IMG/VR virus record: IMGVR_UViG_3300012919_001529
Location: 1-25,431 of that record
Length of the DNA: 25,431 bases
DNA from: a virus
Lineage: Duplodnaviria; Caudoviricetes
Strand: one strand, 5' to 3'
The notes beneath the pieces are model-generated. The model was not told the origin of the DNA. It did not search any database and saw only the letters and a program-made list of their open reading frames with translations. Within the stretch, counting starts at the first letter, position 1. The number at the start of each line of letters is the position of its first letter. Shown here piece after piece: positions 1 to 20,585 of the stretch. The position numbers and the translations under genes were made by a program.

Positions 1-159
1 AATGATGTCACATATTTGTATGAAGTAGTCTACGAAACGTAGTCGAAGGATGATTTGAGTTTCCTCGGCGAGCCTTTGCGTGTATTCTTCTTTGCCTGGA
101 CAGTGCCTAATGAATCTATCGTACAGCCTTGTTATGTCGTTCAGTTCTTTGTCTTTCAT
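1..159 (-). CDS. DNA polymerase III alpha (DnaE)-like protein, N-terminal part, truncated by the window edge
   Basis: Not in the ORF track. Manual translation from ATG at 159 is open to position 1: MKDKELNDITRLYDRFIRHCPGKEEYTQRLAEETQIILRLRFVDYFIQICDII. It matches the DnaE 'Y..RL..E...I....F..YF..V.D.I' segment that precedes the GRGS motif. Confidence 0.75.
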   Translation of the reverse strand, partial: MKDKELNDITRLYDRFIRHCPGKEEYTQRLAEETQIILRLRFVDYFIQICDII

Positions 160-221: not shown

Positions 222-902
222 TTATGAGTTAAGATTTTGGCGAAGTTTGCTTTTTGGAATATCTATATCTCGCTTGTCGCAGGCGGCACTAATGACACAT
301 GGGTCACATTCCGGAGATCTAGATCTACAAACTTTTTTAGCATGGGTAATGAGCCACATGTGTGCTCCGTACTTGTATTTGCTGGGAGTGGTTTTGTTGA
401 CAGTGATAGATGCCTTGCCCTCGTCTAGGCTGTCAGCCCATCCAAGTCTCCACAACATTCTAAACACATGAGTATCTACCGCTATGTGTGGTTCACCGAA
501 TACAAATCTCATCACTATATCAGAACTCTTCCGACCAACACCCGGCAAGGACATCAATTCTTTTTGTGTGCTAGGAACTCGCCCGTTAAATTTTTCAATA
601 AGCATCTTACTAGTTGCCAGTATGTTTTTAGACTTTGCGTTGAACAGTCCTGCGGGTCTTATTGCCTCTATGATTTCTTCTTGAGAAAGTTTCAGCATTT
701 CCTCTGGAGTGTTTGCTAATGCAAAAAGTTGTCTACAAGCAATCGCTGTTCTTCTATCTTGTGACTGTGCTGACAACATCACACCTATTAGGCTGGTGTA
801 TGCCTTAGAATATATTTTTGCTTTTGGCTTCTTATTAGAATAACTTGGATAGAGAGAACTTAACTTCTCGTATATGTAGTTGATATCATTATTGTTCTTC
901 AT
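222..902 (-). CDS. nth: Endonuclease III (HhH-GPD DNA glycosylase/AP lyase with 4Fe-4S cluster)
   Basis: LSAQ, HhH motif LPGVGRKSS (catalytic K), VDTHV (catalytic D), C-x6-C-x2-C-x5-C cluster motif. Start at ATG 902 preferred; the track starts at 917. Confidence 0.93.
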   Translation of the reverse strand: MKNNNDINYIYEKLSSLYPSYSNKKPKAKIYSKAYTSLIGVMLSAQSQDRRTAIACRQLFALANTPEEMLKLSQEEIIEAIRPAGLFNAKSKNILATSKMLIEKFNGRVPSTQKELMSLPGVGRKSSDIVMRFVFGEPHIAVDTHVFRMLWRLGWADSLDEGKASITVNKTTPSKYKYGAHMWLITHAKKVCRSRSPECDPCVISAACDKRDIDIPKSKLRQNLNS

Positions 903-2331
903 CTGAGTGCAGTTCATTTAAGAGTTGTCTCAGTTTGCCGCCCTCAACTGTGGCTTTGACTTTTCCTATTGTATCTCCTTTACGAGGATCTGGCACATCT
1001 GGTCTGGCATCTTTTTTAGGACCATCCGATGCTGATACTTTCGATGTTTGCTTCAGTGAATCATATATCGTGCTTCTCTGTTTGTCAAACTGCTTGTACT
1101 CTGGATCATCTGCTAGATCTCTTATTCTCAAACTGTCCACGTCAAATTCTAGGTCCACTTTCTGTCCTACACCAGAACTAGATCTAGTCTTCATGAACTG
1201 TATCTGATATCTGCCACGTTCTTTCATGGCTCTGCTTGTGAATATACCTATCACGTTATCTGCTGTCTGTATCTTGGACAGTCCACCTGATATGTGAGAG
1301 TGATCAAACTCTATTTCTTCTACAGATGCCCTGTTCAACTGAGATGCTGTCGCCAATATGCATTGTTTTTCAACAACCAAGTTCCTCAGTTCTTCTGACA
1401 CATACTTGTCTTTGATGAACAAGTCTGCCGGCGAAATCCTCTTGCTTTTCGGCATCATCAAATCCAGATAGTCAATCAGTATACAATCTATTTTCTTTTT
1501 GTTTTTCAGTTCTAACTCTTTTAGATATGTCCTTATGTCCAAAACAGTGCTACCACTTGGTAGATATTTTATCTGTAAGGTTCCAGACTTCTTAGCCATC
1601 ATTTTGACTTTCATCTCCACATTGTCTATTTCAGGAAATACTTTACGTGTTGGAATGTTAGTCATCATGGCATCCAATCTCATAGCAGTAAGTTGTTCAC
1701 TCAATTCAAAAGATATGTAACAAACGTTCAGACCAACAGTGGCCCAGTTAACTGCAAGATTCTGCAAGAACAAACTCTTACCTGCGCCTGATCCACCTGC
1801 AAAGATGTTTAGTTCTCCTCGGTTAAATCCACCGAATAGTTTCTTGTCTAAGTTAGCCCAGCCAGTGCTGATCTGTCCGTTGTTTGCCTTGAGTGCCTCT
1901 AGTCTTCCTTTCGGATCCTCAAAGTAGTCTGTACCTAGGTCACGAGTCAACCCTACATTGACAGCATTTTTGACCATGTCTTCGACCGGAGCATAGTCTC
2001 CCTTCTCCAACAAGTCTGCTGATTGTAGTATTGCATGTTCAAGTGCCTTGTGCCTAGAAAATGTTTCAAATTCATCTAGCAACCAATTGAAATGACTTGG
2101 ATCTAGGTCTTTTGCTGACTTTAGTTTGATATCAAATTTTGCATTTACTTGCTCGACTTCAGGCATCACCTTATACTCGTCCATGTAGTCTTTTATGAAC
2201 TTTGCAATGGGTTGTAGTTTCCTGTCAAACGATTCTGGTTTGAATATGTTCTGTGCCCTGGCAAACGATTCTGCATCTGCTAGTAGCATCTCCATATAAA
2301 GTTTTTGTACATCAAATGTATATTCAGCCAT
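889..2331 (-). CDS. Replicative DNA helicase, T4 gp41/DnaB-like (SF4)
   Basis: Walker A GGSGAGKS, YISFEL, Walker B ILIDYLD, TASQLNR, K-TR arginine-finger region; near primase. Confidence 0.93.
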   Translation of the reverse strand: MAEYTFDVQKLYMEMLLADAESFARAQNIFKPESFDRKLQPIAKFIKDYMDEYKVMPEVEQVNAKFDIKLKSAKDLDPSHFNWLLDEFETFSRHKALEHAILQSADLLEKGDYAPVEDMVKNAVNVGLTRDLGTDYFEDPKGRLEALKANNGQISTGWANLDKKLFGGFNRGELNIFAGGSGAGKSLFLQNLAVNWATVGLNVCYISFELSEQLTAMRLDAMMTNIPTRKVFPEIDNVEMKVKMMAKKSGTLQIKYLPSGSTVLDIRTYLKELELKNKKKIDCILIDYLDLMMPKSKRISPADLFIKDKYVSEELRNLVVEKQCILATASQLNRASVEEIEFDHSHISGGLSKIQTADNVIGIFTSRAMKERGRYQIQFMKTRSSSGVGQKVDLEFDVDSLRIRDLADDPEYKQFDKQRSTIYDSLKQTSKVSASDGPKKDARPDVPDPRKGDTIGKVKATVEGGKLRQLLNELHSDEEQ

Positions 2332-2932
2332 TCAATTCCTCTTTGTCTTGGTTCAAAAACATCACAAGTGCTTTCTTTTTATCAAGTTTATTCTTTTTAA
2401 AATTATCGCTGGCATGTAATAATTTTCTGTGCCAGCAAATAAGTGAACCACGTTTCCACTTGTAACTTGACAGTAATGAAACCCTTTGTAACTTTTTATC
2501 ATTGCAATGGTCCAATATGGCAAGTGTCTGAGTATCCAATTTGTTTTCACTTTCAGGTAATTGAAATATTTCCTCTCTATTCTTTGCTTCTTCGTTGAAG
2601 ACCACAGTGTGGGTGTCCTTGCCGTCGTATTCAAGTGGTATAAGACACGCATAGTATGGATGGGTGTCTCCCTTGTTAAAATCAGTGTGTATGTCCCATG
2701 GTTTTGTTTCTTCGAGTATCATACAGTCTTTCACATTAAACTCACCAAAAATATTTTTAAGTTTTTCGTCTACAATCTTTTTTATGAGAGAATAGTTGAA
2801 TCCGCTAGTGAAGGTTTGTTTTTCATCATTATTCATCTGCTTAGGTATTTTGTTGCTTATGATATCGATGTGCATAAGTTCTTTTTCACTTAAGAAGTTT
2901 TCTATCGTAAATGCTTTTTGCGGACTATCCAT
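2324..2932 (-). CDS. Putative 2OG-Fe(II) oxygenase
   Basis: N-terminal IENFLS, HTD metal motif, LIPL strand, distal G...W....LHAS motif. Confidence 0.65.
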   Translation of the reverse strand: MDSPQKAFTIENFLSEKELMHIDIISNKIPKQMNNDEKQTFTSGFNYSLIKKIVDEKLKNIFGEFNVKDCMILEETKPWDIHTDFNKGDTHPYYACLIPLEYDGKDTHTVVFNEEAKNREEIFQLPESENKLDTQTLAILDHCNDKKLQRVSLLSSYKWKRGSLICWHRKLLHASDNFKKNKLDKKKALVMFLNQDKEELNG

Positions 2933-3938
2933 ACATTTTTCTTTTTAAATCAATTTTCAGTTTACTAGATTCTGTTGTTTTCAATATCGATTGTATAGTA
3001 AACAGTCTCCCATATTTTAACACAGCGTCCGCCACATCGCCAACCGATTTGTCCCATTCTGGAAATGCAACACTCCAGCCAAACTCTATTGCTTGATTAA
3101 TCAATTTCTCTCCAGGTGCGTCTCGGTCCGGCACAACAATTACCTTTCTACCAAGTCCGTCTATGAGCTCTCGCTGTATGTCATTTATCTCTGAACCCAG
3201 TATGCTCACACCAGAAACGGATATGGCATCGAATGGTCCTTCTGTTACAATAACAAACTTCCTTGTCCAATCCTGTGCGTCCATGTTGAACACATATCCG
3301 GGTTGTACGTCTGTGTAGTATTTGACTTTGTCGGATTGCTCAAACATTCTACCCGTGAATCCAACAACATCTCCTCTCCAGTAAAAAGGTATCAGCAATC
3401 TTTTATTCACGTCCCAGTGCTGGTCCGGAGAATACATAAAGTCATACCATTCCGGTCCGATGCCTCTGCTTTCCAAATACTTCAGCACTGCGTCTATTTT
3501 TTCCCACTGTGGTTCTGTAAGATCTTTTGCCACGTATTTTTCAAGCCACACATCAAGTTTGTGTGCGTTCTTGGGCAGTGTTTTATTTTTGAATGTTACA
3601 AATTTTTTCTTCTCATATTTTACATCACCCTCTTCTTCACGCATGGCCTCTATTGCCAACTTGCGGATAGTGTCGTCTGGTATTCCTATGTAACCCATGA
3701 ACTGCCTCATCTTGTAAGTCAATTTACGTCCTATCACATAACTTGCCTTGAATCCACAGTTGAAACAATGATAACTTACGGTTCCGTCGGCACTTGCCAT
3801 AATACCGCCACGTTTTTTCTTGTCGGCTGTTTCACCATTGTGTACGCAACACGGGGCATTGAAAGATATCCACCCACTCGGAGTTTTCTTTCTGTTCGTT
3901 GGAAGGCTCGTCAGAATAGTAGATTGGATCAGGTTCAT
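2925..3938 (-). CDS. DNA primase (gp61/DnaG-like; Zn finger plus TOPRIM)
   Basis: CCVH...HCFNC zinc-binding domain, YLESRG, IPF...G...GR, TOPRIM EGPFD and PDRD, terminal DVAD. Confidence 0.9.
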   Translation of the reverse strand: MNLIQSTILTSLPTNRKKTPSGWISFNAPCCVHNGETADKKKRGGIMASADGTVSYHCFNCGFKASYVIGRKLTYKMRQFMGYIGIPDDTIRKLAIEAMREEEGDVKYEKKKFVTFKNKTLPKNAHKLDVWLEKYVAKDLTEPQWEKIDAVLKYLESRGIGPEWYDFMYSPDQHWDVNKRLLIPFYWRGDVVGFTGRMFEQSDKVKYYTDVQPGYVFNMDAQDWTRKFVIVTEGPFDAISVSGVSILGSEINDIQRELIDGLGRKVIVVPDRDAPGEKLINQAIEFGWSVAFPEWDKSVGDVADAVLKYGRLFTIQSILKTTESSKLKIDLKRKMYG

Positions 3939-4759: not shown

Positions 4760-5134
4760 ATGAACGAAATTTTTAACACACTCAGGGACAAGTTCCCCTT
4801 TTTAAGCCTAATTAGAAAGGGTGATATGGAGTTTGTTGGCATTATACAAAATGAAGATGCCAATGTGATCAGTTTCTATGACTATGGTAGATTGATGTTG
4901 CCCCAAGACAAGATGAGATATCTTAAATGCGGTGAAACTTGGTGGCACGAATCAAATCGTAAACTACCTATTAACATATTCCTCAAAGGTGAGTTCAGAT
5001 ATTTTAGGTCAACATTGGTTACTTTAAATTCAAAAGATGTTGAAATAGTTCACGGACCCACAGTGAAACTTTCTGAAATTTCGAAGAAACGGGTGAAAAG
5101 GAAGACTATCCAATTAGTAAGACGACCTATCTAG
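4760..5134 (+). CDS. Hypothetical phage protein
   Basis: 124-aa ORF filling the gap, protein-like composition (FPFLS, GIIQN, WWHESNRKLPINIFL), basic C-terminus. Confidence 0.8.
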   Translation: MNEIFNTLRDKFPFLSLIRKGDMEFVGIIQNEDANVISFYDYGRLMLPQDKMRYLKCGETWWHESNRKLPINIFLKGEFRYFRSTLVTLNSKDVEIVHGPTVKLSEISKKRVKRKTIQLVRRPI

Positions 5135-5288
5135 TCTTCTTTTTTTCAGGGAGTATAGCACCTGTTGTAAGATAGTGTAATGTTAAAGGACTATCCGGCT
5201 GATAACTGCCACACTCTGAACGTTTTGAAGATTTGGATTTTCTAGTTCGTCTTTTGATGATTTTACTTTTACTTTTTTGATGTTGCAT
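5127..5288 (-). CDS. Small basic hypothetical protein (53 aa)
   Basis: Below the track cutoff. MQHQKSKSKIIKRRTRKSKSSKRSECGSYQPDSPLTLHYLTTGAILPEKKKTR; start overlaps the end of mini-DnaE and the ORF fills the otherwise empty 5135-5268 gap. Confidence 0.5.
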   Translation of the reverse strand: MQHQKSKSKIIKRRTRKSKSSKRSECGSYQPDSPLTLHYLTTGAILPEKKKTR

Positions 5289-5859
5289 CAAAACTATATT
5301 TAGCTCTGCTCATCAGATTCATCTGCACAACTATTGCCTGGGCGTATGCAACTGCGTGTGACTTCTTGAAAAAATAACTTCCGTCCTTTGGTTTTACCCA
5401 CACTTCTTTCATTATGTCCACCCAGTTCTTGTACATCAGTCCTCTTTTTGCAGGACGTATTATTGCCAATACAGCCGCAAGTTGTTCTATGTTTTTTGGT
5501 TCGAGACTCGAAACTATCTTGAAATGTCCGTTGAGGTGGAATAAGTTTTCTACAACCTTTGGATCTTTCAGCATGTCCCAGTCCGGCTCTTGTATCATCA
5601 GTTCAACAAGTTCCTGTTCTGATTTTACATCCTTGTAGATGTTTACGTTTAGGCAGTCTATCTTGAAATATCCTCTGTCCTCCGCGTTCTTGTAATCCAG
5701 TGAAGCGTGTCCGGTCACAGGATGTTCTGGAACAGCATGGAAGTATACACCAGTCTTGTGCTTTTCCGTTTTTCCCTCTTTTATCATTGTGGCAGGAGTG
5801 TGTTTGAACAATTTTAAAACTCCGTCCCTATCGAAAAAGTCTATGTCTACATCAGGCAT
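5269..5859 (-). CDS. Miniature DNA polymerase III alpha (DnaE)-like catalytic core
   Basis: Ordered DnaE motifs: PDVDIDF, KHKTGVY, GYFKIDCL, LFHL, QLAAVLAIIRP, YFFKKSHAVAYA. Confidence 0.88.
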   Translation of the reverse strand: MPDVDIDFFDRDGVLKLFKHTPATMIKEGKTEKHKTGVYFHAVPEHPVTGHASLDYKNAEDRGYFKIDCLNVNIYKDVKSEQELVELMIQEPDWDMLKDPKVVENLFHLNGHFKIVSSLEPKNIEQLAAVLAIIRPAKRGLMYKNWVDIMKEVWVKPKDGSYFFKKSHAVAYAQAIVVQMNLMSRAKYSFDATSKK

Positions 5860-6092
5860 TAGTGAATGCTTCCTTTCTCTTGTTGTCTGTGTTTTATAAA
5901 CTTATCTTTGGCTCCAGGTTGCAAGACGTCTAGCACATCTAATAACTTTCTGTATCCTTCTGTGTTTACAATTTCTTCTGTCATCTTTGGCATTATTACT
6001 CTACCTATTGAGCCATCTTGTTTTATTATGATCGCACAGTCACCGTCGTCAAACTCTAATGTGTCTGCTATTTCCAAATCTATCTTAGACAA
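5859..6092 (-). CDS. Hypothetical protein (77 aa)
   Basis: GGAGG SD upstream; overlaps both neighbours (TAATG junction with mini-DnaE). Confidence 0.7.
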   Translation of the reverse strand: MSKIDLEIADTLEFDDGDCAIIIKQDGSIGRVIMPKMTEEIVNTEGYRKLLDVLDVLQPGAKDKFIKHRQQEKGSIH

Positions 6093-6771
6093 TCTTGGCC
6101 TCCTTCGCAGTTTCTTCTACCAGTAGCAAGTCAGCCGGATAACTTTTCATTTTGCTAGGCCAGAAACTTGGATTTATGAAAATTTCAATCATTTGCAGTT
6201 GTTCGTCGTTGAATGATTTTAACATCCTTTTGCCTGCGTTGCAACCTAGTAGTAACCACGGACTTATTTTTCCTTGCTGTATGTGTTGGACTGCTCTGTT
6301 TGTATTGACCAATCTAAAGTAGTCCGACCATTGTGCATTTTGTTCTTCTGCCCAATCCATCATGGTCGTAATACTTCTTTGCAGTGCGGCCTCTACAGGT
6401 TCGCTTTTGATTGCTTCAATAAGATATGTTTCATACAGGTCATCCCTTGCCCAGTGATCCAGTTTTATTTTAGATTTCAAAACAAAATCTATGTATTTGT
6501 CCGGGTACAGTGGATTGATATGCATGATGAATCGACCAAATTTTACAAACGCATTGTAGTAAGGACTTTTTACAAAGTCGTCGTATGTCTTTGCTTTTGA
6601 ATTTTTTTGATGTATTTGATAGAAACGCTGGAATACCATGAACGCATTCACTACCCATTTCTCATCTTTTTGCAGGTATCTTCTTTTTGGCTCACACATA
6701 TGAACTTGTAAAGTTCTTTCTCTTGTGAACTCCTTACCGCAATAAGGACATTTATATTTTGTCAATGCCAT
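6085..6771 (-). CDS. Hypothetical protein with N-terminal C2H2/C2HC-type zinc finger
   Basis: YKCPYCGKEFTRERTLQVHMC at the N-terminus; in operon. Confidence 0.75.
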   Translation of the reverse strand: MALTKYKCPYCGKEFTRERTLQVHMCEPKRRYLQKDEKWVVNAFMVFQRFYQIHQKNSKAKTYDDFVKSPYYNAFVKFGRFIMHINPLYPDKYIDFVLKSKIKLDHWARDDLYETYLIEAIKSEPVEAALQRSITTMMDWAEEQNAQWSDYFRLVNTNRAVQHIQQGKISPWLLLGCNAGKRMLKSFNDEQLQMIEIFINPSFWPSKMKSYPADLLLVEETAKEAKIV

Positions 6772-7207
6772 GTGCCTCCAGTAACTCTTCTAGTTCTCGG
6801 TCTGATATCACTTTGTCAAGTGTTTCTAAGTCTGACTCTTTCCAGGTAGGATATATTTGTTGTAGTTTCTTTAAACTCTTGTTTGGAACACGCTTCATTG
6901 GTTTGATCCATGGGTGGAATTGTTGTTGCAAAGTTCCACACATCGCAGTGAGTATCCAAAGTAACTTTTTATGTTTGCCCAAAGTAAAACAGTGTTTGTT
7001 CACACATTCGTTGACCATTTCTACGTAGTGTTCAACATAGAATGGATCTCTAGATGAACAACTTGACACATATCTCATAAGCATATACGGTGAGTACAAT
7101 GATTTTTCTTTGTCGTCGATACGATCGAAGTAATCCTTATTCCTAAAGTCCACGGCCTTCAAGCCATTCCTTAATTCAAAAAATTTTCTATTTTTTTCTG
7201 CTGGCAT
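6752..7207 (-). CDS. Clamp-loader small subunit, gp62-like
   Basis: YSPYMLMRYVS, EMVNE, HKKL, FHPWIK, LQQIYP pattern and 151-aa size resemble T4-type gp62. Confidence 0.65.
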   Translation of the reverse strand: MPAEKNRKFFELRNGLKAVDFRNKDYFDRIDDKEKSLYSPYMLMRYVSSCSSRDPFYVEHYVEMVNECVNKHCFTLGKHKKLLWILTAMCGTLQQQFHPWIKPMKRVPNKSLKKLQQIYPTWKESDLETLDKVISDRELEELLEAHGIDKI

Positions 7208-7418
7208 ATTTTAATCCAAACATTGTGCATTCTTTTGCATCAACAAATGTTAATTTTAATTTATTATTCAAATGTTTCATACCCGAAAGTTTAAATTTGT
7301 TCTTGTTCATCCATCCAAAAAAATCCCTCACCCATGCTTCGTCCATCCAAATTGCTTTCTTCTGTACTAACATAACCGGAGCATCTATTTTGATACTTTT
7401 TTTACCATACCGAGCCAT
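7188..7418 (-). CDS. Hypothetical protein (76 aa)
   Basis: Start moved to ATG 7418 (MARYGKK) to minimise overlap; C-terminal F.D...CTMFGLKY is typical of small phage proteins. Confidence 0.65.
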   Translation of the reverse strand: MARYGKKSIKIDAPVMLVQKKAIWMDEAWVRDFFGWMNKNKFKLSGMKHLNNKLKLTFVDAKECTMFGLKYASRKK

Positions 7419-7905
7419 AATCAACCTGTTCGCATTGTCTTGAAATGTCTTTAACAAAATAAGCACATATGGGTTTAGAACCATTCTTCAATGGAACTGC
7501 CAGCATCTGTCCCGATTTAATTTTAGGAAAGTACCATTTAACTTCTGTGTATATGTCAACAACATCTATGGGCATAAAGTCTGGTTTGCTACTTGATAAG
7601 GGATTGAAAGTGAAAGCATCAAACCCTCTGTCGTTTAAACTTGTAATTGGTAACACATGCATCTCAGATTGCCCGGCCTCTCCTATCAGCATCTTCCAAT
7701 CAAGAGGCATTTTTATTTTGTAATCACCTATTTCTAGTACCGCCGCCGGCGCATTGAAACTTTCTAAAAATATTAATGGTATGTAAAAGAAGTCAGGATT
7801 CGCTGGGTCTGAGTTATCAAGAACTGCAAACCGTAGGTTCTCATCCACCCATTCCGGTATCTTTTCTAAAGTGTAGGTTCTATTATCCAGTGTAAGGATT
7901 TTCAT
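7402..7905 (-). CDS. Hypothetical protein, possible degenerate stand-alone Hint/intein-like fold
   Basis: 167-aa ORF coupled to UvsW; strand pattern resembles Hint blocks B and F but the catalytic residues are absent. CDS is confident; fold is tentative. Confidence 0.7.
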   Translation of the reverse strand: MKILTLDNRTYTLEKIPEWVDENLRFAVLDNSDPANPDFFYIPLIFLESFNAPAAVLEIGDYKIKMPLDWKMLIGEAGQSEMHVLPITSLNDRGFDAFTFNPLSSSKPDFMPIDVVDIYTEVKWYFPKIKSGQMLAVPLKNGSKPICAYFVKDISRQCEQVDYGSVW

Positions 7906-9349
7906 AATCTATCTTCTCTATATTATACGGGTAATTTGCCTCTTTGTAAAACTTTTTCCTTGCACCAAGGTGTCTTTTTGCAAACTTGCAACTGCTGGTA
8001 ATGTCCCAAATTTGTACGTTCTCTTTATCTTCTGCTTTACGGATGCCTCGTCCTATGCTCTGGATTACTCTTACGAAAGATTTCCCAGGTTCAATAAGAA
8101 CAAGATTGAATATCCGAGGAATATTAATTCCAACGGATGCGACGCCATATGTCGCAATAATAATTTTGTTTTGTGTTGTAGACACCTCATCGTAGTGTTC
8201 TTTCCTTTCTAAATTTTTTGTTGATCCCGAAATAAACACAGAATCTTTTAATTTTTTATTGAGTATTTCGCCCGCGGATATTCTGTCTACTAAAATTAAG
8301 GTGTTCCCCGAAGTTGAAATATCTTTTATTGTGTTCGCCACCCAGTTCATTCTGGTGCTATCCGTAGTTAGCCATTTCAGTTCTTCTGCATAGGTTTTGA
8401 ACTGCGGGTGGTCTTGTGTCTGCAGAACATTCACATGACAGTTCGCGAGGACGCCCTTGTCTTGTAATTCACTTGCTTGTATCCTGTTTGCTACTTCACC
8501 TATGCTACATTTCAATCCCATGAATTCATAGTCTGCTTTTGGCACAGTGCCTGTAAGTCCCCAACGTATACCACAGTGTGCAAACGGACCTGTCAGTAAT
8601 CTTTTGAGAACATCTGCTTTCGCCATGTGAACCTCGTCAATTATTACAGTCTGGATTCCGTCACAAAACTCTTTGAATTCTGTGCTGTGTTCATTTTTTG
8701 CTTTCTTCTCCAGTACATTGAGGCTTTGCCATGTTGCTATTGTGTTATATCTTCCAACTTCTTTTCTATCCCCGTAATACACTCCTGTGTCGAGATTACA
8801 AGCAAGGAAGTCTTCTTCGGTCTGCGTCACAAGACTCTTGTTTGGAACAATGGTTATCGTTCTTCCATATGGTTCTACTAGTTGACACAACGCCGCTGTG
8901 ATTATGGTCTTGCCTGCCCCGGTGGCTATTTCTTGTATGCTTTGGGGGTTTTCGATAAACTTGTTTATTGTTTCAACTTGATAGTCTCTCAACTCTATAG
9001 GTTGTCCTGCACATGGATGTTTGTCAGGCCATTTTATGTGTGACAAGTAATTTTTGTCCACCTCTTGAAATTCAAAGTCGTGCTTGTGGCGTTGGTCGAC
9101 AACATCAATGTAGACACCGCCTTCGTCCAGTATTGGAATAATTTGGTCCACCAGGTTGAGATATGTCGTACCACCTAATCCAAAGAATGATACCTTACCA
9201 TCCCATCTGCCTAATTTTACCGCCGGCAGGTGTCTGGCATATGGTATTTCATATTTGAACTTGTTTGATAATCTTTTGCGCCATTCGAGAGATAAATTCT
9301 CAAACTTCACATTTACTTCGTCTTTTATAACTAATTTACAACTACTCAT
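7883..9349 (-). CDS. uvsW: UvsW-like SF2 DNA helicase
   Basis: Q motif LRDYQ, ATGAGKT, DEVH, GLTGT, GINIP, QSIGRGIR, WDGK N-terminal motif. Confidence 0.9.
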   Translation of the reverse strand: MSSCKLVIKDEVNVKFENLSLEWRKRLSNKFKYEIPYARHLPAVKLGRWDGKVSFFGLGGTTYLNLVDQIIPILDEGGVYIDVVDQRHKHDFEFQEVDKNYLSHIKWPDKHPCAGQPIELRDYQVETINKFIENPQSIQEIATGAGKTIITAALCQLVEPYGRTITIVPNKSLVTQTEEDFLACNLDTGVYYGDRKEVGRYNTIATWQSLNVLEKKAKNEHSTEFKEFCDGIQTVIIDEVHMAKADVLKRLLTGPFAHCGIRWGLTGTVPKADYEFMGLKCSIGEVANRIQASELQDKGVLANCHVNVLQTQDHPQFKTYAEELKWLTTDSTRMNWVANTIKDISTSGNTLILVDRISAGEILNKKLKDSVFISGSTKNLERKEHYDEVSTTQNKIIIATYGVASVGINIPRIFNLVLIEPGKSFVRVIQSIGRGIRKAEDKENVQIWDITSSCKFAKRHLGARKKFYKEANYPYNIEKIDYENPYTG

Positions 9350-10763: not shown

Positions 10764-11237
10764 ATGAAAAAGAAAACAGTATTAAAAGGCAAGGCAAAAA
10801 ACCTTAAAAAACAGTTCAAAAGAACTTTGACGGTAAAAGAAAGTGTGATTGGATACAAGCCAACACCCTTGGTTGCCGCACACTGGTTCAGAAAACTTAA
10901 CACTATCTTGTTTGGTAACAGATTAAGTGGGTGTGAAATAAGGATTAATAAACTTCATCACGACTGGGGAAGATGTGTTGCCGACTGGGACAACAGACAT
11001 TGTAGGAAAGGGACCTTCAATCAGAAGGTAATTCCATATCACAAAACAGAAGTGTATTACAGAATTGAACTACATTGTAAATTTCCTAAATGGAAAGACT
11101 TCATTGAAACCTTGGCACACGAAATGGTGCACCTATATCAGATGCAAGTTATGAAAGATCCTTATTCAAATCATAACGCAAACTTTTACGCCTTCAGAGA
11201 AAAATTTAATGCTGTTGGTTTAAGACTGTATCGTTAA
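10764..11237 (+). CDS. SprT-like zinc metalloprotease
   Basis: F..LN...F...L, WG.C, TLAHEMVHLYQ (HExxH) and downstream H...F third-ligand region. Confidence 0.85.
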   Translation: MKKKTVLKGKAKNLKKQFKRTLTVKESVIGYKPTPLVAAHWFRKLNTILFGNRLSGCEIRINKLHHDWGRCVADWDNRHCRKGTFNQKVIPYHKTEVYYRIELHCKFPKWKDFIETLAHEMVHLYQMQVMKDPYSNHNANFYAFREKFNAVGLRLYR

Positions 11238-11961
11238 ATTCTTTATAACTTATAACTCTGCTGTTTCCTAAATTTGTTCCGGTCTGCAAGTGATTCATGA
11301 ACACGGGTGGATTGTCATGTACAACTGTGTAGTTCACGTAAGGTCTCATCTTCAGCATATCCCTGAATTGCTTTAGCCAACCCTCGAAAATTTTGTCGTC
11401 GTTACGCTCACCATAAAAGTCTGTGTTCTGATAGATGTTGTTAAGTTGTGCTTTGCCATATTCCCTGAAATCGAATCCTATCAAATAAATGTTTTTGTGA
11501 CCATGCACACCCGCTGTCCAGAAAGCCGCGTTGCCTGATATCCAATGAGGGTTATTTGGAATCAGGTGTAACATACCTTTGTTCTGTTTTCTATTAACTT
11601 CTAGTGCTGGTGCATAGTGTATAGTTTTAAGACCCACTTCATCTTCACACATTTTTACTGTCATTTTCATATCAACCGAAAATATAAAATCAGGCATGAA
11701 ATCTCTATACAATGCATTACATCCATATGTTTGTCCTGTTACTTTTAATGTGTTAAGGTCAAAACCTTTCCGTGAAGGACCGTTTCCTATGATGTATGCG
11801 TTGCCACGTGGTACTGCTCTAACTTTGTCTTCGAAAAATGCAGTTTCCTGTATACGTTTACCTTTTCGAATTATGGTATTTACTATCACGGTCTCACCAG
11901 CGTATGGCTTCCACTCTATTGGTTTTATCTCTGGCTTTCCGAGTATTATAGTTTTCATCAT
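11206..11961 (-). CDS. Maf/DUF115- or CstII(GT42)-like glycosyltransferase-fold protein
   Basis: IIGNGPSR, YGCNALY, PD...VD, SG..A, KNIYLIGFDF. Confidence 0.72.
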   Translation of the reverse strand: MMKTIILGKPEIKPIEWKPYAGETVIVNTIIRKGKRIQETAFFEDKVRAVPRGNAYIIGNGPSRKGFDLNTLKVTGQTYGCNALYRDFMPDFIFSVDMKMTVKMCEDEVGLKTIHYAPALEVNRKQNKGMLHLIPNNPHWISGNAAFWTAGVHGHKNIYLIGFDFREYGKAQLNNIYQNTDFYGERNDDKIFEGWLKQFRDMLKMRPYVNYTVVHDNPPVFMNHLQTGTNLGNSRVISYKEFNDTVLNQQH

Positions 11962-12452
11962 TAAAAATAGTTAAGGTTAAAAACAACTCTGTAAGGAGCA
12001 TCGCATGAGTTTGTTGTACCAAAATGTTCTAGGCTTCCTTTAAAGGTAATAAGTCTGTTTGCCACACTGTCTACCTTTTCACCTGTTGCAAATTTCGTGT
12101 ATCCGTTATTCGTGTTGAGATATAATATCGCTGTCTTAAGGTCATTTGGCGGATTTTCTATATCTATGTGAGAATGGTGCTCTATTATTTCTTCGGTCCT
12201 GTGTAATAAGTTTATTTTGGCTCTCACTAGTGACACTATGTTTAGTTTCTCTTTAAATATTTCTAAGCCTCCCAGCGTGAAAGAACTGTTAAAAGTGTCA
12301 TTCTTATACATTAGATGTGTGAACATAATACCACTGTCATCTCCCTTGTAACTTACTCCATGGTTGAGATACCAAGGAAAGTCTGCAGACAGTACAATGT
12401 TTTGTAAGTCTCGAAAGTCATTTTTATCTAAAAAATTGTCAATTATTTTCAT
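11961..12452 (-). CDS. 2OG-Fe(II) oxygenase
   Basis: Start at 12452 (ATGA overlap, GGAGG SD). IIDNFL, FPW, HID, ILYLN..NGYT, NRL..F.G...H, R.V.N.NY. Confidence 0.85.
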   Translation of the reverse strand: MKIIDNFLDKNDFRDLQNIVLSADFPWYLNHGVSYKGDDSGIMFTHLMYKNDTFNSSFTLGGLEIFKEKLNIVSLVRAKINLLHRTEEIIEHHSHIDIENPPNDLKTAILYLNTNNGYTKFATGEKVDSVANRLITFKGSLEHFGTTNSCDAPYRVVFNLNYF

Positions 12453-13321
12453 TTGAGATATTTCTCCTCCAGTCTTTTCTTCAACCTTGACCATGGCAGT
12501 CCTGCTTCTATTTCTTCCTTGAACCATTCGGTGTAACTCAACCAATTTGCCCATTTTGATCTGTTAGGCATGGCCGGTGTGTTTATATCTGCCAGACTTG
12601 TGTTTCCTACATCATGGCACAGGCTAGATTCTGAAACAAAAACTGGTACGCCTCTGATCACGGCTTCCATTGCAGGATTCGAACTGTGGTTTACAACTGC
12701 CCATGTTCGTTCCAATGTCATTTTAAAGTCTGTGTCGTCATATGTTTTATAATCTCTTCTAGGCAGTCTCAATTTAACATTTTCAAAATCACTTTCCTTG
12801 AATTGTATAAGGTTTCTAGGGTGTGGCCTTACTAATATCGGTCTTGTGGTGTATTTCCTTATTTCTCGGATCTGCTTCACTATCCATTGTTCCATTCTTG
12901 GCAGTCCTTTCCATTGTTCTGATGCATCGTGTTGTCCACATATTACAATCATCTCTCCGGTGGGATTCCACGGTGTCAGTTTGTGTTTGAACAGTGGCCA
13001 ACGTTTGTCGTCAAAGGTCTGATTGGCAAAATCTGCATCTCTATTGATACCATTAATGCCAATTTTGAAACTGTGATTCCTCCTCAATCCGCCAACCTCT
13101 ATTACTATTACAGGGAGGCCCTTACTCCTATATTCATTCCAAATCTTTTTGTACTGCTCCATTCTTCCCCGCCATAATACGCTCCATATAACTGCCACGT
13201 CAGCATTTGTTGACTTGTTCAATACTACTTGATCACCTGCATCTCTGACACTTTTTATAAATGCATCAAATATAGGTTTGGAATTCAGAGGTCCATATTC
13301 TGTCCATATTTCTAGTTTCAT
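12449..13321 (-). CDS. KpsC/KpsS-like (capsule polysaccharide biosynthesis family) glycosyltransferase paralog 1
   Basis: E.G, GQ...S, VRPHP, VNHSS..A.EA...GVPVF, R..W...L.Y..W...E...G. Confidence 0.62.
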   Translation of the reverse strand: MKLEIWTEYGPLNSKPIFDAFIKSVRDAGDQVVLNKSTNADVAVIWSVLWRGRMEQYKKIWNEYRSKGLPVIVIEVGGLRRNHSFKIGINGINRDADFANQTFDDKRWPLFKHKLTPWNPTGEMIVICGQHDASEQWKGLPRMEQWIVKQIREIRKYTTRPILVRPHPRNLIQFKESDFENVKLRLPRRDYKTYDDTDFKMTLERTWAVVNHSSNPAMEAVIRGVPVFVSESSLCHDVGNTSLADINTPAMPNRSKWANWLSYTEWFKEEIEAGLPWSRLKKRLEEKYLK

Positions 13322-14241
13322 CAGTTTCCTTGTTTTCCTTTTGCAACTTTGCTCACTATGTCCTCTGCCTGTTTAGGATCAAATTTTATACCACCAAAGG
13401 GATCATAAGATTCTACATTTTGCCAATATGATTCCTGTCGGTCACCACGTAGATCACTTTTACTACTCTTGCCCTTGACTTTTCTTTTGCCTTTCATGTG
13501 GTCAATGTATGCTCCCAACACGCTGTTAATGAATACGTGATGTCCTTTTGCGCCTGCACCTTTTCCTATATCTTGTCCATCTGTGGGTGCAATTCGTTTT
13601 ATACACTGCCAGAATAGATAACTGTCATGCCACTCTAGTTCTTTGAATATTGTGTCGTTAATATACATGTCTGTCCAATACTTCATAAATTGGTCAACTT
13701 TGGGGTGTTTTGTGTTGTAGCATACCCATCCACACTCTGGATATTTCTCTCCACGTCCTAAAAAATTTACAAGTTTTGTTTCGGGCAAAAGGTCCACAAC
13801 AAATTCTTTTGTAATTGGTCTGAATGTGTACGTATCGGCATCTAGCCATAAAACATAGTCTGTTCCTGCATTTTTAATTGCATGATCAACAGCAAAAGTT
13901 TTATGAGCAAATCTCACAGCGTCCCAAAGGTAAGAACCTTTTCCTTTATCGTTTTTGCCAGCACTGGGATCTCTCCTTACTCCTCCTGCTATCTCTGTTA
14001 CTTCACCGTTCGCCACCGGGTCGTCTTTGTGTCTTTGTTTGAACTTGACTAGTTCAGGATTGACTTCTTCTATATTGATATACTTAACTTTGTTGTGTTC
14101 CAAGTCTGGCTTATCTCCTTCGTGATATGCATGAAGCATGACGTCATTGGGCCAAAAGTCAATATGACTTTGTAGCATTCTTTTAGCATACGCATTCCAT
14201 CTGTTAGGCGGAAACGTTGTAACAACGGTCAATGTTTTCAT
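13321..14241 (-). CDS. GT-A fold glycosyltransferase
   Basis: WDAVRFAHK, VLWLDADT (DxD), ECG, EWHDS, DHMKG.RK. Confidence 0.72.
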   Translation of the reverse strand: MKTLTVVTTFPPNRWNAYAKRMLQSHIDFWPNDVMLHAYHEGDKPDLEHNKVKYINIEEVNPELVKFKQRHKDDPVANGEVTEIAGGVRRDPSAGKNDKGKGSYLWDAVRFAHKTFAVDHAIKNAGTDYVLWLDADTYTFRPITKEFVVDLLPETKLVNFLGRGEKYPECGWVCYNTKHPKVDQFMKYWTDMYINDTIFKELEWHDSYLFWQCIKRIAPTDGQDIGKGAGAKGHHVFINSVLGAYIDHMKGKRKVKGKSSKSDLRGDRQESYWQNVESYDPFGGIKFDPKQAEDIVSKVAKGKQGN

Positions 14242-15224
14242 TACAGACCCAACCTTTGCTTGAATCTTTTGTACACAGTACCATCCTTAATTTCTTTTAT
14301 GCTCCACATCTTGTAGCCAAGATCGTTTACCCATTGTGTTCTATCAGGATATTCAGGAGTTTCTATTTTAGATAGATCTTTGTTTGCTACAGGCCAACAA
14401 ATTGCAAGATCGCTTGTAACAAAGGTAGGGATTCCACGAATGCAAGAGTCGACGCTGGCAGTAGAATTGTGAGTAACAAAAGCATGACAATTATTTAAAG
14501 CCTCTTGGAAATGGAATCTATAATGCTTTTTCTCATCTCCTATGAAATGTTTTTGTGTGAATTGTATTTCTACATCGTCCGGGAGTTCTGCACTGCGTCC
14601 ATCGATGTTTGCCACATTGTTTGGATGTGGTCTCACAATAAATTTTCTTTTAGTAAGTGGTCTCAGTTTTTCATAAACATTGTTGAACCAATCAATAGGA
14701 TCGAGCTCGTTCATACTCCAATTGTCTTTTGGTTGTAGTCCAAATAGTATAGGGTCATCCGGATTGGATTTCCTCCATGGTTCGTATCGCACCTTGAATT
14801 TCTTCACCATCATTTCCCAACGATCACTGGGACTGTTATCTGACAAGAAGTCACCGTCGTTCATAGGAGTGTATAACGAAACCCTAAAATGATGATCTGG
14901 AGATGTTGATACATTTCCAAAACTTGACAGCAATCCACCATCAAATGTGATTAAAGGAATTTTTTTTGCTCTACAGTTGTTTGCAAGTTCCCTGCGTCTT
15001 CCTTTTGTATGGTGCATCTGTCTATCACCACCGTAACCAAACATTGCCGCCATGGGGGCAGTTGGCATCATTTCACCTTCGACAGTTGGCCCTGTCATGT
15101 GTTCATTTACTATGATTGCTTCATCGCCTGCGGCTTCTATGCCTTCTTTTAAGTGATACAAAAGGTCATAACTGTTTCCACGCTTACGATCTTTGACAGT
15201 TCTTCTAAATATTTCAACTTTCAT
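14241..15224 (-). CDS. KpsC/KpsS-like glycosyltransferase paralog 2
   Basis: D.G, LQ..D, VRPHP, VTHNST..VDS...GIPTF, R.QW...L.Y..W...E...G. Confidence 0.62.
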   Translation of the reverse strand: MKVEIFRRTVKDRKRGNSYDLLYHLKEGIEAAGDEAIIVNEHMTGPTVEGEMMPTAPMAAMFGYGGDRQMHHTKGRRRELANNCRAKKIPLITFDGGLLSSFGNVSTSPDHHFRVSLYTPMNDGDFLSDNSPSDRWEMMVKKFKVRYEPWRKSNPDDPILFGLQPKDNWSMNELDPIDWFNNVYEKLRPLTKRKFIVRPHPNNVANIDGRSAELPDDVEIQFTQKHFIGDEKKHYRFHFQEALNNCHAFVTHNSTASVDSCIRGIPTFVTSDLAICWPVANKDLSKIETPEYPDRTQWVNDLGYKMWSIKEIKDGTVYKRFKQRLGL

Positions 15225-16023
15225 TAAGCATTCTCCAAGCAGTGCCGTCTGCCATTTCTTGTAGTGTCCAGTTATTATATGCTAAACTTGAAAATAATGC
15301 AATCCTGTCACCATATACTGGCGTTTCTATCTTGCTAAAATCGGTTTCTGAAATTGGTGCGGCGCCACTATTCACAGGGTCACAAAATACAGGCACGCCA
15401 TTTGTCAAACTGGCCACCATGGTGTTGGAATTATATGTCACCATTGCATGGTAATCACTCCAATTAATTTCACCTTTATGAACGGTCTTTGTTTCGATCT
15501 TTACGGTCGCACCAACATGATCCTTACCAACTATTGGGTTGTAAGGTTTCTCTCTAATGTCTATTTCTCTGTCTGTGTTTTCTTTCAGTGTTTTGATTGT
15601 TTTGTCGAGCCAGTCTGTTACATTAAAAAAATTTGCTATTGCATTTGTTGGAGGCAGTACTAAAATCTTCCTGCCTTTTTTCCACGGTTTGATATCTTCT
15701 TTGAAATTCTTTTCATAACGATCAGTTGGTCTGTTTTGCAAAACGTTCTGGCAGTGTTTATTTTTTGTTATCCTTAACCAGTGCGGGGGAACATGAGCAT
15801 TTGTGAAATACCCGTGATCCATAAAATAGAAATTTTTATTTGCCTTTTCACAATCTTTGTATACCTCTCCAGACCCTGCTAGTATTCCGTACATGGTCAA
15901 GTCTTCTGCAGGCAGTCCTTTAAGTTGCCGAAAATGATAAATCGTGCCCTGTCCGGATCCTTTTACGAAAGCATCAATATATCGTTGTGTCCTTGGTTTG
16001 GTAGTGTGTATGCCTGACAGCAT
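15214..16023 (-). CDS. KpsC/KpsS-like glycosyltransferase paralog 3
   Basis: DHGYF, RI.KN, VLPP, IREKP, VTYNSN...S...GVPVF, R...F..LAY..W...E...G. Confidence 0.58.
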   Translation of the reverse strand: MLSGIHTTKPRTQRYIDAFVKGSGQGTIYHFRQLKGLPAEDLTMYGILAGSGEVYKDCEKANKNFYFMDHGYFTNAHVPPHWLRITKNKHCQNVLQNRPTDRYEKNFKEDIKPWKKGRKILVLPPTNAIANFFNVTDWLDKTIKTLKENTDREIDIREKPYNPIVGKDHVGATVKIETKTVHKGEINWSDYHAMVTYNSNTMVASLTNGVPVFCDPVNSGAAPISETDFSKIETPVYGDRIALFSSLAYNNWTLQEMADGTAWRMLNES

Positions 16024-16778
16024 TATATTCTGTTTTCCCTGACATCGAACATCTTACGCTTGGCGGCTCGGTTGAACTCTGCGATGATGTTAACACTTCG
16101 CCTGTGCAGTGTTGCATTCTGTCTAGCAGATACGCCGTGTACACATTTTGTTGAGTTATTACAAAAAGCAACTACTGTGTTTGCTTTGTATGGCACTGTC
16201 TTTACTATTTCGCCTGCCTTGTCGCCAACTGCCCTACCACCATTTTTATTCACCTCATGTATATGCTTATCTGTCTTGTATATTTGAAATTCACCGCCTG
16301 TGCTTAGGTCATCTTTGTAAGGCATGTAAAGTAATGCCGCATAAATTTCCCTAGGATTGTCTATGTGAGGAGTCCTCGAACTGAAGTCGATGGGTTTGTG
16401 CATGACAGTTTGACAGTCAGTGCCAATCCAGTCATCGCCCTTATCCCAACCTCTTGGACTTAGAGTATTTTCTAAATTTTCTATGTGTGGCACAAGATCA
16501 CCAAATGCTTCTTGCATCTCTTTGTAAAAAGAAGAAGACGTGTGGTACTCGGTGAATTCTCTCCATATGTTGGCAACTTTTCCTGGCTTCAACATTTGAT
16601 CTGCCTTAAGTCTATGACATATGCCCTTGTCAAAAGGTTCCGTTTCCAGAAGTTGATCCTTGGGCCATTCTCTTTCGAGACTATCATATATGTCTTGCGG
16701 CAGTGCGTCCTCAATTACAAAATGCGGATAAGGTTCTAGGACTAACGTTGGTTTTTTCTGTAGTATTGAAATTTTCAT
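16023..16778 (-). CDS. 2OG-Fe(II) oxygenase
   Basis: PYPHFVIEDALP, PHID, LLY, GGEF, PY..N..V.F, HGVS.R, RRSVN. Confidence 0.85.
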   Translation of the reverse strand: MKISILQKKPTLVLEPYPHFVIEDALPQDIYDSLEREWPKDQLLETEPFDKGICHRLKADQMLKPGKVANIWREFTEYHTSSSFYKEMQEAFGDLVPHIENLENTLSPRGWDKGDDWIGTDCQTVMHKPIDFSSRTPHIDNPREIYAALLYMPYKDDLSTGGEFQIYKTDKHIHEVNKNGGRAVGDKAGEIVKTVPYKANTVVAFCNNSTKCVHGVSARQNATLHRRSVNIIAEFNRAAKRKMFDVRENRI

Positions 16779-17863
16779 TCTAGGTGCTCCATTATTTCTG
16801 GTATGTTTATTTTAAAGTTTATCATGTCACTGAAACGCTTTATTCCTTTCGGCTTAGACCCGTCCTTCAGAGGAATTGGTACTACATCTGCCAAGTATAA
16901 TTTATGCTCTAGATCTAAATTATGTGATAGCAATGGATATACTTTTTTATGTATCATGTTTTTATCTTGTATCTCTAGTATTTTAGTTCCTGGTTTACAC
17001 CATAGCAAGTTAACCAAACCTGCTCCATGGGCCGCAACAATGTGTGATGCTTCTGCAAAGGTTTTCATTTGATCTTTGATTGACATTTTTTCTAAAGCAA
17101 CTGTCTCCCATCCTTTTAATTTCAATAATAACTCATCAGAGTTTACAAGTTTCCTACTTTTTGCTCCAGGTCTTAATACAACTATCTTTCTATGTGGCTT
17201 GGTTCCTTTGAGATTTTTCAAGCCTTTGAAGTGTCTTAACCATGGAGCCAACGGCGGAACAATTACTCCGTCCTTAGAGTTACTCATGCTTGGTACTAGC
17301 AGATGTTTGAACTGCCATGTTTCACCCTTGGGCATTGTAACTATTTTTACATCAGGAAAAAGTGTCTGGCATACCTTCTCAAAATAAGGACTGTGGTTTG
17401 CCAAAATAAAACAATATCTGGAAAAGTTAGTTGACCATCTTTTCTCTAAAAGTCTAAATTTTGAAATAACGTCTATCCAGATGTGCCATGGATTTTTTCC
17501 ACTACCTTCGTCCACGGGCAACCAAACGTAAGTATTTGTTTCATTGAAACTTTGTGTCACAGGTGGCAATTCGATATTCATGTCATCTCTCCACTCCTTC
17601 CATAGTGAGTGTGTCTTGTGGGGTTTATGTTTGCTCTGGTGAGTGAGCGACCATATGTATTCTGTGATCATTTTATTTTCTCTAGTTACCAGTAAGGGGC
17701 AGGTATGGACTTTACATCCATGGAACTCTGCAACGAACGTTGGTAAACTTGTAAACATAGGATCTATGGAATCGTGATAGGGAACGGTGTAATTGTACTC
17801 GGGGTCAACTGTTTCCCACCTATCAAGGAAATACTTCAGAGAGTTTATGTTTTTTACTGACAT
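16775..17863 (-). CDS. Glycosyltransferase family 61 (DUF563)
   Basis: NPWH...D, R...R.L.N..E, E.MS..DQ..F..A...V.AHGAGL.N.LW..PG...LEI. Start moved to ATG 17863 because the track start overlaps the divergent gene. Confidence 0.85.
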   Translation of the reverse strand: MSVKNINSLKYFLDRWETVDPEYNYTVPYHDSIDPMFTSLPTFVAEFHGCKVHTCPLLVTRENKMITEYIWSLTHQSKHKPHKTHSLWKEWRDDMNIELPPVTQSFNETNTYVWLPVDEGSGKNPWHIWIDVISKFRLLEKRWSTNFSRYCFILANHSPYFEKVCQTLFPDVKIVTMPKGETWQFKHLLVPSMSNSKDGVIVPPLAPWLRHFKGLKNLKGTKPHRKIVVLRPGAKSRKLVNSDELLLKLKGWETVALEKMSIKDQMKTFAEASHIVAAHGAGLVNLLWCKPGTKILEIQDKNMIHKKVYPLLSHNLDLEHKLYLADVVPIPLKDGSKPKGIKRFSDMINFKINIPEIMEHLE

Positions 17864-17886
17864 TTTATTAATAATTATGTTATAAT
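17857..17886 (+). promoter_or_regulatory. Sigma70-type promoter (CTGACA-18-TATAAT, extended -10 TG) for the plus-strand four-gene block
   Basis: TGTTATAAT with the -10 at 17881-17886, 8 nt before ATG 17895. Confidence 0.55.
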
Positions 17887-17894
17887 ACACGATC

Positions 17895-18557
17895 ATGATA
17901 TTATTTTCAAACGGATGCAGTTTTCTCACGACCCGGCCCAAAGACGGCGTGGACACTTTTACCACTAAAATTATTGCTGAAAATTACAAAATGGAATTGG
18001 CAAACTTGGCGATGGGTGGCAGAGGTAACACCAGGATAGGATTTTCAACCAAAGTGTGGGTTGAACAGAATAAGGATAAAGACATTTTTGCAATAATAGG
18101 TTGGTCAAGTGCTGTGAGAAATGATTATATCACGGACGACGGATGGAAAAAAGGACGTATACCAGGCACCGATCTGACTTGGCGTACTTGGAAGACATTG
18201 GATAATGTAAGTTTTATACGAAGTCATAAAGGATGGGATATAGAAAACAATCTCACCATGAACTTCCTTGATAATGTTTTTGACTTGCAGAACTACTTTG
18301 AACGCAAGAGAATACCTTACGTGATGTATAACAGTTTGCCCAACGACTTTGGCAACGGCACAGAAGATTTTAACGTGATAAGAAACGCAATCAATATGGA
18401 TAGATTCTTCAGTCCAAAGGTAAGTCACTTGGAGTTTGTGTCTGACAAAAAATTAGTAGTCAGTCCGCACGATCCTCATCCGTCGGCAGATGGGCACCAA
18501 CAATGGGCCGAACAACTTATGGAGTTTATAGATGCTAACAATCTACGCACCATTTAA
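17895..18557 (+). CDS. SGNH/GDSL-like hydrolase-fold protein
   Basis: NGCSF block I, NLAMGGRGN block II, IGWS...R, DPHPS..GH block V. Confidence 0.75.
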   Translation: MILFSNGCSFLTTRPKDGVDTFTTKIIAENYKMELANLAMGGRGNTRIGFSTKVWVEQNKDKDIFAIIGWSSAVRNDYITDDGWKKGRIPGTDLTWRTWKTLDNVSFIRSHKGWDIENNLTMNFLDNVFDLQNYFERKRIPYVMYNSLPNDFGNGTEDFNVIRNAINMDRFFSPKVSHLEFVSDKKLVVSPHDPHPSADGHQQWAEQLMEFIDANNLRTI

Positions 18558-19344
18558 CAACAAGAACAGTAAAGCATATGAAGTGTTTGACGGTGTACAG
18601 AAATCTTGGCCGGAACAGACTACGTTATTAGACAATCAAACTGAAACAGAGCCAGTGCCAAATAGCATGTTCTGGGGGTTTGTTGGCAACAACAGAGAAA
18701 TGGTCAAAAAACTCGAAGCACGTAAACATCAGTTTTGGTTTACAGATACTCCATACTTTGGAAGATTCGACAACAATAATTTAAAACCAGACAATCATTA
18801 TTGGCGTATTTGTAAAAACGGAATACATGTACCGTACATTAAAATGTGTAAATCTGATAGGTTTGATAAATTTGGAATCAAGATAAAAGCACCTGACTTC
18901 AAAGGCAGTTATGTACTAGTCTGTCCAAGTTCAGCAGGCATACACAACTACCTGGGTAAACCAAACTGGACAAATGAAATTGTTGAACAAATAAAAAGAT
19001 ACACAGACAGGCCAATTAGGATCAGACACAAACCCAGAGGCAGGGGAACATCTGGGCCAAGCGAGGCAACAGTGCCCCTATCAGAGGACCTTAAGGACGC
19101 ATGGGTGTGTGTGACAAGTTGTTCGATTGCCGCCGTGGAAGCACAATGCATGGGCATTCCTGTAATTTGTGATGAAAAAAGTTTTGCGAAAGAAGTTGGA
19201 GGTCAGGAACTTTCCGACATTGAGAATCCGTATTTTGTTGGTTGTGAGGATTGGCTCTACAGTCTAGCATACCAGCAGTTCACACCAGAAGAAATAGCCA
19301 ATGGCAAAGCAGTAGAAATACTGATGGATAAAGGTCTGTTATGA
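18532..19344 (+). CDS. KpsC/KpsS-like glycosyltransferase paralog 4
   Basis: DTPYF, RI.KN, VCPS, IRHKP, VTSCS.AAVEA...GIPV, W...LAYQQF...E...G. Confidence 0.58.
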   Translation: MLTIYAPFNNKNSKAYEVFDGVQKSWPEQTTLLDNQTETEPVPNSMFWGFVGNNREMVKKLEARKHQFWFTDTPYFGRFDNNNLKPDNHYWRICKNGIHVPYIKMCKSDRFDKFGIKIKAPDFKGSYVLVCPSSAGIHNYLGKPNWTNEIVEQIKRYTDRPIRIRHKPRGRGTSGPSEATVPLSEDLKDAWVCVTSCSIAAVEAQCMGIPVICDEKSFAKEVGGQELSDIENPYFVGCEDWLYSLAYQQFTPEEIANGKAVEILMDKGLL

Positions 19345-19982
19345 GCATTGAACAACTATCAAATGGCTTATGGGTGCCATCAAACGATGCCCAAATAGAA
19401 CAGTGGCGTGAAAAAGGTCACCCATATATGCAGGATACTTGTCTCGATAAATTGGTAGAGTGGTGTAAGACGAATGATAAAAAATTCAATCTAATAGTTG
19501 ACGTTGGTGCATGGTGTGGTACTTGGACATTGTCTATGCAACCGTATGCAAAAAATATCCATTGCTATGAACCTAACAAATTGCATTATGGTTGCCTCGC
19601 AAGAAATATCAACAGATACAGTCATGTTGAATCTTATAACCAAGCATTAGGTAACGATGACGGCTATGTTAAATTAACAGAAGAAAGTGCCACTCAGAAT
19701 ACGAGAGTTTTGCTAGAAAACGGTGAAACAAAAATAAACAAGTTAGATTCTTTAGGATACAATGATGTAGATTTCATCAAGATAGATGTTGAAGGTCTAG
19801 AGATGGAAGTACTCAAGGGTGCGGCAAGAACTTTAGAAAATGTTGAATACTTAATGATAGAATTAAATGGCAATAGTGAGAGGTATGGCAGTAGTAAAAA
19901 AGATATAAAGGAACATTTGAAATCCTTAGGTTTCAAAATATTAATAAAGTCTTGGCCAGACATTGTATACACAAAAGCATGA
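19341..19982 (+). CDS. FkbM-family SAM-dependent methyltransferase
   Basis: VDVGAWCG, YEPN, ALG, LDS, FIKIDVEG.E..VL.GA. Confidence 0.9.
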   Translation: MSIEQLSNGLWVPSNDAQIEQWREKGHPYMQDTCLDKLVEWCKTNDKKFNLIVDVGAWCGTWTLSMQPYAKNIHCYEPNKLHYGCLARNINRYSHVESYNQALGNDDGYVKLTEESATQNTRVLLENGETKINKLDSLGYNDVDFIKIDVEGLEMEVLKGAARTLENVEYLMIELNGNSERYGSSKKDIKEHLKSLGFKILIKSWPDIVYTKA

Positions 19983-20584: not shown

Positions 20585-20585
20585 T

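Follow-up and report, generated by a model that had tools for sequence, protein, structure and literature searches.

A jumbo phage gene very probably encoding the C-terminal half of a split minimal C-family DNA polymerase

The 196-aa protein encoded on the minus strand at positions 5269..5859 of a 25,431-nt stretch of uncultured phage DNA (the window) is almost certainly the C-terminal half (C-half) of a split minimal C-family polymerase. We think it likely that the whole enzyme consists of two pieces, becomes active when the C-half is bound by an N-terminal half (N-half) and serves as a short-patch helper beside a B-family replicase. A two-gene minimal Pol III alpha, to whose C-terminal half this gene corresponds, is described for group 2.2 jumbo phages in passages of Iyer et al. 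2021 (PMC7824862). The gene is thus an ordinary member of a family described computationally in 2021, and the novelty that an earlier sequence-only reading had claimed for a mini-polymerase at this locus falls away. It resembles the described genes in its whole-length family match, its gene order, its catalytic residues and its start at the first aspartate, and is 38-54% identical to isolates of the split family among the matches listed. Named members are Atu_ph07 gp074/gp316, PA5oct gp264 and 121Q gp16, with PHROG 11778 representing the C-half and PHROG 11127 the N-half. The family belongs to the core genes of jumbo phages such as PA5oct, Paride, 121Q and Atu_ph07 and is very widespread, 4452 protein clusters at 90% identity matching it. 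A literature search, whose scope excluded most subscription papers, found no later study or assay of the split enzyme, and the family goes unmentioned in passages of PMC12926913, PMC7318152 and PMC12641269. If active, the enzyme would represent the minimal catalytic unit of a bacterial replicase within a two-family phage replisome. Of lasting value are the exact breakpoint, the modelled interface and the natural 375-aa fusions, which make activity and role directly testable.

Sequence, fold and catalytic residues of the C-half

The assignment is based on sequence, profile and fold matches. The ORF matches PHROG 11778 across the whole profile (E 8.7e-66), and the family HMM matches E. coli DnaE with an E value of 1.9e-10 in a two-sequence search; Pfam gives a sub-threshold finger match only. 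An AlphaFold2 model of the C-half alone reaches a pLDDT of 95.4. With this model, C-family polymerases fill the top 18 rows in Foldseek (best E 1.1e-3, none below 0.001) and the top 7 rows in a VIA fold search. The sequence-only reading had placed the ORF in the C family with its motifs in the right order and had proposed a structural comparison as a check; the profile and fold matches bear out the family.

The protein begins with MPDVDIDF and continues through H34..G37, KIDCL (D68), R135-P136 and F.KSH..AY (H168, Y172), i.e. with the catalytic and fingers motifs in the same order as in bacterial Pol III alpha, DnaE and PolC, which are also its top fold matches. In E. coli DnaE the catalytic residues are D401, D403 and D555. 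Since the E. coli protein, fetched and translated, reads P400-D401-F-D403-V-D405, K553-F-D555, R639-P640 and H760..Y764, the equivalent residues of the C-half are D3, D5 and D68, and not D5, D7 and D68 as first proposed, an offset of two. On the minus strand, D3-V-D5-I-D7 (5839..5853) corresponds to D401, D403 and D405, K66-I-D68 (5656..5664) to K553-F-D555 with the third catalytic aspartate, and H168...Y172 (5344..5358) to H760 and Y764. The first and third catalytic aspartates are 63 residues apart, where 61 had been counted, versus 152 in E. coli; the earlier figure for D68-H168, 100 residues versus 205, stands.

A search of 50%-identity representatives returned 447 proteins at E <=0.001, and from the best 150 of these the 81 near full-length ones were aligned with the query, three close kin and one locus; the 69 others, partial matches and one fusion, were excluded. 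In all 86 rows D3, D5, K66, D68 and P136 are invariant, D7 is present in 84, H168 in 85 and Y172 in 75, with F in another 8. Lengths run from 179 to 219 aa in this set, which is biased towards constant length because near full-length matches were chosen.

Compared with the 1160 aa of bacterial Pol III alpha, only 196 aa are present here, or about 370 with the partner. As judged from length and alignment, the PHP, thumb, OB and clamp-binding regions are absent as complete DnaE/PolC parts, little of the thumb being kept, and the 120 residues of the E. coli fingers stretch 640-760 are reduced to 32, which agrees with the losses deduced earlier. This stretch takes part in dNTP binding, as do R390 and R396, neither of which is kept in the aligned split family. 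Loss of both arginines and of most of the fingers could impair catalysis; our guess is that their part may be taken over by conserved K138/R139 of the C-half and by the N-half's invariant H161 region.

The missing N-terminal half

The ORF contains nothing of the region that precedes the equivalent of E. coli D401, to which the GRGS motif (E. coli 361-364) belongs; it is therefore one half of a catalytic core and not the self-contained core that had been proposed. Unlike a complete family C polymerase it has no GRGS segment in the same chain and starts at the D401 equivalent; its features are those of a stand-alone homologue, about 190-200 aa long, of the C-terminal Mg- and template-binding part of Pol III alpha. 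An in-frame stop lies at most 62 codons upstream of the C-half in 159/160 close loci. In the window the ATG overlaps the stop of a 77-aa ORF upstream and is preceded, at a distance of 9 nt, by a Shine-Dalgarno-like AAGGAAG (5869..5875, minus strand).

The GRGS motif is borne by an N-half gene of about 170 aa that ends where the C-half starts. In Atu_ph07 a Pfam search places it, as a 177-aa gene (PHROG 11127), some 182 kb from the C-half. The N-half gene lies outside the primase block, a point against the role proposed below. Ninety-seven N-half loci were fetched, 93 of them with a match and 81 distinct, encoding proteins of 147-202 aa. In 69 of the 81 the C-terminus falls 33 residues from the GRGS start, at the equivalent of E. 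coli N393, and since the C-half begins near D401, the two genes abut in the loop 393-400. Both halves are present in 2/2 complete IMG/VR genomes and in 2/8 partial ones. The N-half was not found in the window, which covers ~7% of its genome, or in 13 fragments of close relatives that are 8-18% complete, so that for the window's clade we infer it from kin. The sequence-only reading was right to include a subunit of a multi-part enzyme among its options, and the missing half accounts for most of what had seemed surprising in it.

In fold searches the pol-beta fold was recognised only when the N-half was added to the C-half. The complex was modelled with the pair of one relative (G001), whose C-half is 58% identical to that of the window, and such a model is to be read with the caveat that split halves can pass by their likeness to solved DnaE. 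Cyanobacterial DnaE is likewise encoded in two genes, its halves being spliced by a split intein; in contrast, the ends of the phage halves meet at the palm break and no intein sequence is present here. In Atu_ph07 (238820-241380; L082 / L085) the N-half gene is found just upstream of a 'head morphogenesis' gene and of the clamp-loader gene.

Natural fusions of the two halves

In one 375-aa protein, P0193, only the second half matches the query; the first is an N-half, and the joiner is ~8 residues long. A search with P0193 (15 matches from 4262 candidates) added two fused clusters, with identities of 81% and 78%. The five fused sequences (P0193, P0276, P0277, P0303 and P0304), a rare form among the relatives, are 375-376 aa long with all motifs intact, and because two sources contribute a total of ten contig records with them, of up to 33 kb, an assembly slip is unlikely. 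Against isolates, P0193 matched 188 places in 96 records, none with at least 80% coverage, and among the matches listed 59/60 rows show two places. The model of the fusion is of moderate quality (pLDDT 70.9, pTM 0.71). In a quick tree of 108 rows, backed by SH-aLRT values and by neither a completed thorough search nor an AU test, all fusions fall into a single clade (support 100), which is nested among the stand-alone halves behind two branches with support 95; five DnaE outgroups stand apart (98), and the window's clade joins the G001 half (88). This topology favours fusions that were re-joined after the split, provided that their stand-alone sisters are no gene-calling artefacts. The literature search found no report of N-C fusions, and the passages of Iyer et al. 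2021 (PMC7824862) describe split forms only. As a single-chain test enzyme, a natural 375-aa fusion would make the predicted activity easy to assay.

Gene neighbourhood and a second C-family gene

The C-half lies in a T4-like replication context (gp32, UvsX, UvsW, DnaG, DnaB) in the order typical of group 2.2. Its fixed upstream neighbour (6085..6771, minus strand) encodes a 228-aa zinc-finger protein of PHROG 11058, in 7/7 distant and 77/77 close loci, and its fixed downstream neighbour is a convergent 124-aa ORF of PHROG 11637 (4760..5134, plus strand), in 7/7 distant loci. A DnaG-type primase is encoded at 2925..3938 (minus strand; phrog_47, E 7e-39), and profile matches and synteny identify a DnaB/gp41-type helicase at 889..2331 and a UvsW-like helicase of the same conserved block at 7883..9349, both on the minus strand. 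Primase and helicase follow downstream in each of the 35 close loci that extend far enough. Common to Atu_ph07, PA5oct and 121Q is the order UvsW, 167-aa protein, 151-aa protein, 228-aa zinc finger, C-half, convergent 124-aa ORF, structural protein, primase and helicase. By eye, the conserved neighbours at 6085-6771 and 6752-7207 (both minus strand) resemble gp59 and gp62, a likeness for which shallow profile comparisons gave no support. The conserved 167-aa protein directly after UvsW (7402-7905, minus strand; PHROG 11279) appears Hint-like by eye, with no Atlas support.

At the edge of the window, which cuts it, lies the start of a second C-family gene (1..159, minus strand). In close relatives this is a compact, unsplit DnaE of 561-563 aa without PHP, and not an N-half; one such gene of ~562 aa with no PHP match is found in locus L002 (15694-17382, plus strand). 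Of 17 loci that extend 9 kb or more downstream, 6 contain it, frequently next to an HhH-GPD glycosylase (222-917 in the window). It shares 38% identity with a gene of LR756508, a 484-kb phage without the split enzyme. Since the compact DnaE is also found in this clade, these phages can carry two C-family genes 5-7 kb apart. The clade differs in this feature of some of its members, and in being uncultured, from the described group 2.2 phages. The ~562-aa enzyme looks accessory.

A possible role at the replication fork

We propose that the N- and C-halves, made from distant genes, would bind each other and rebuild a pol-beta-type palm, to which the C-half would contribute the three metal-binding aspartates and the shrunken fingers and the N-half the GRGS motif. 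An active heterodimeric polymerase is likely. Having lost most of the thumb together with its PHP, OB and clamp-binding regions, the enzyme is expected to be distributive and non-proofreading. A B-family polymerase is kept in the genomes of 5/5 relatives, which argues that the split enzyme is not the main replicase; the search for gp43 suggested by the sequence-only reading thus succeeded among the relatives, and the 7%-complete window yielded no B-family polymerase. In Atu_ph07 (W01) and PA5oct (W02) the PolB match itself is spread over two separate reading frames.

The fixed place in the UvsW - primase - helicase block would put the enzyme at the fork, where it may extend primase-made RNA primers by a few deoxynucleotides before passing them to PolB. 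This role with its hand-off, drawn by analogy, is advanced tentatively. A T4-type PolB extends RNA primers unaided, so that a primer extender would meet no obvious need. Primer extension was nevertheless chosen because of the gene order and of the precedent in B. subtilis, where DnaE extends RNA primers by a few dNTPs for PolC, according to parts of PMC13220808. There, DnaE3 is likewise a C-family enzyme beside a different main replicase, but it is a full-length single chain (same source), whereas the role of the split enzyme is predicted only. We are a little more hesitant still to suggest that N- and C-halves together form the smallest working C-family polymerase (~370 residues), a Pol-alpha-like primer extender in a T4-type replisome that mixes families B and C, of which the 375-aa fusions would be single-chain versions re-joined after the split.

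It is possible, though rather unlikely, that the same heterodimer instead resembles DnaE2 and bypasses lesions or fills gaps during repair and recombination-dependent restart. The lack of a proofreading domain and the position in the gp32-UvsX-UvsW block would suit such an enzyme, and the possibility is named in a passage of Iyer et al. 2021 (PMC7824862). However, the fixed synteny in 7/7 distant loci fits a core function, and the patchily distributed 562-aa DnaE beside a glycosylase (6/17 loci) is the better candidate for repair. Synthesis of one whole strand by the heterodimer, held by the phage clamp or by extra subunits, seems improbable to us. One-strand synthesis is raised in the same article (PMC7824862, in part), in Atu_ph07 the clamp loader is four genes away from the N-half gene, and unassigned conserved neighbours could supply missing domains; but neither half nor the fusion has a thumb, OB or clamp-binding region, no neighbour could be shown to match a missing DnaE domain, and PolB is present in 5/5 relatives.

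The loss of most DNA-gripping parts, together with the numerous sugar- and methyl-transferases predicted for other parts of the window, might also point to a repurposed nucleotidyltransferase acting without a template in end-tailing, modification or signalling. We judge this slightly more improbable again, as each of the 7 strong fold matches is a C-family polymerase, the protein retains the fingers motifs RP and KSH..AY, and the gene order links the C-half to replication genes rather than to the transferase cluster. The analysis turned up no evidence of the DNA-modifying transferase that the sequence-only reading had entertained. A self-sufficient miniature polymerase of 196 aa, compatible with the three aspartates and the confident fold of the C-half alone, is very improbable, given the lack of a GRGS segment, a pol-beta fold that emerges only with the N-half, and an N-half that co-occurs, abuts exactly and is sometimes fused.

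Conservation and selection

Decay of a host dnaE fragment, which the shortness of the gene and its large deletions might suggest, is practically excluded and was rejected on the basis of dN/dS and of length conservation across close loci. The median dN/dS against the window is 0.041 (range 0.019-0.092, 106 of 123 comparisons being usable), and a value of 0.045 was obtained over 251 unsaturated pairs. Among the close loci, the 124 distinct coding sequences contain zero stops and all keep the catalytic aspartates, and 160/160 loci are ungapped with products of 195-204 aa. Among isolate records, 95 of 96 reach a query coverage of 80% or more; both counts are independent of the choice of full-length rows made for the alignment. 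Judged by these substitution patterns, the C-half is a gene under selection, streamlined and no pseudogene, as had been argued before. The earlier proposal to look among homologues for random truncation and free Asp positions likewise ends in its favour, with D3, D5 and D68 constant throughout the alignment and lengths nearly so in the close loci.

Elsewhere, the window carries a cluster (11206-21296) of predicted glycosyltransferase, FkbM methyltransferase and 2OG-Fe(II) oxygenase genes (PF04577, PF05050 twice, PF13640), possibly for glycan or surface modification. A C-half 44% identical to that of the window occurs at 5001-5540 of locus L427, on a 42-kb contig of a Legionellales MAG that is perhaps a binned phage contig.
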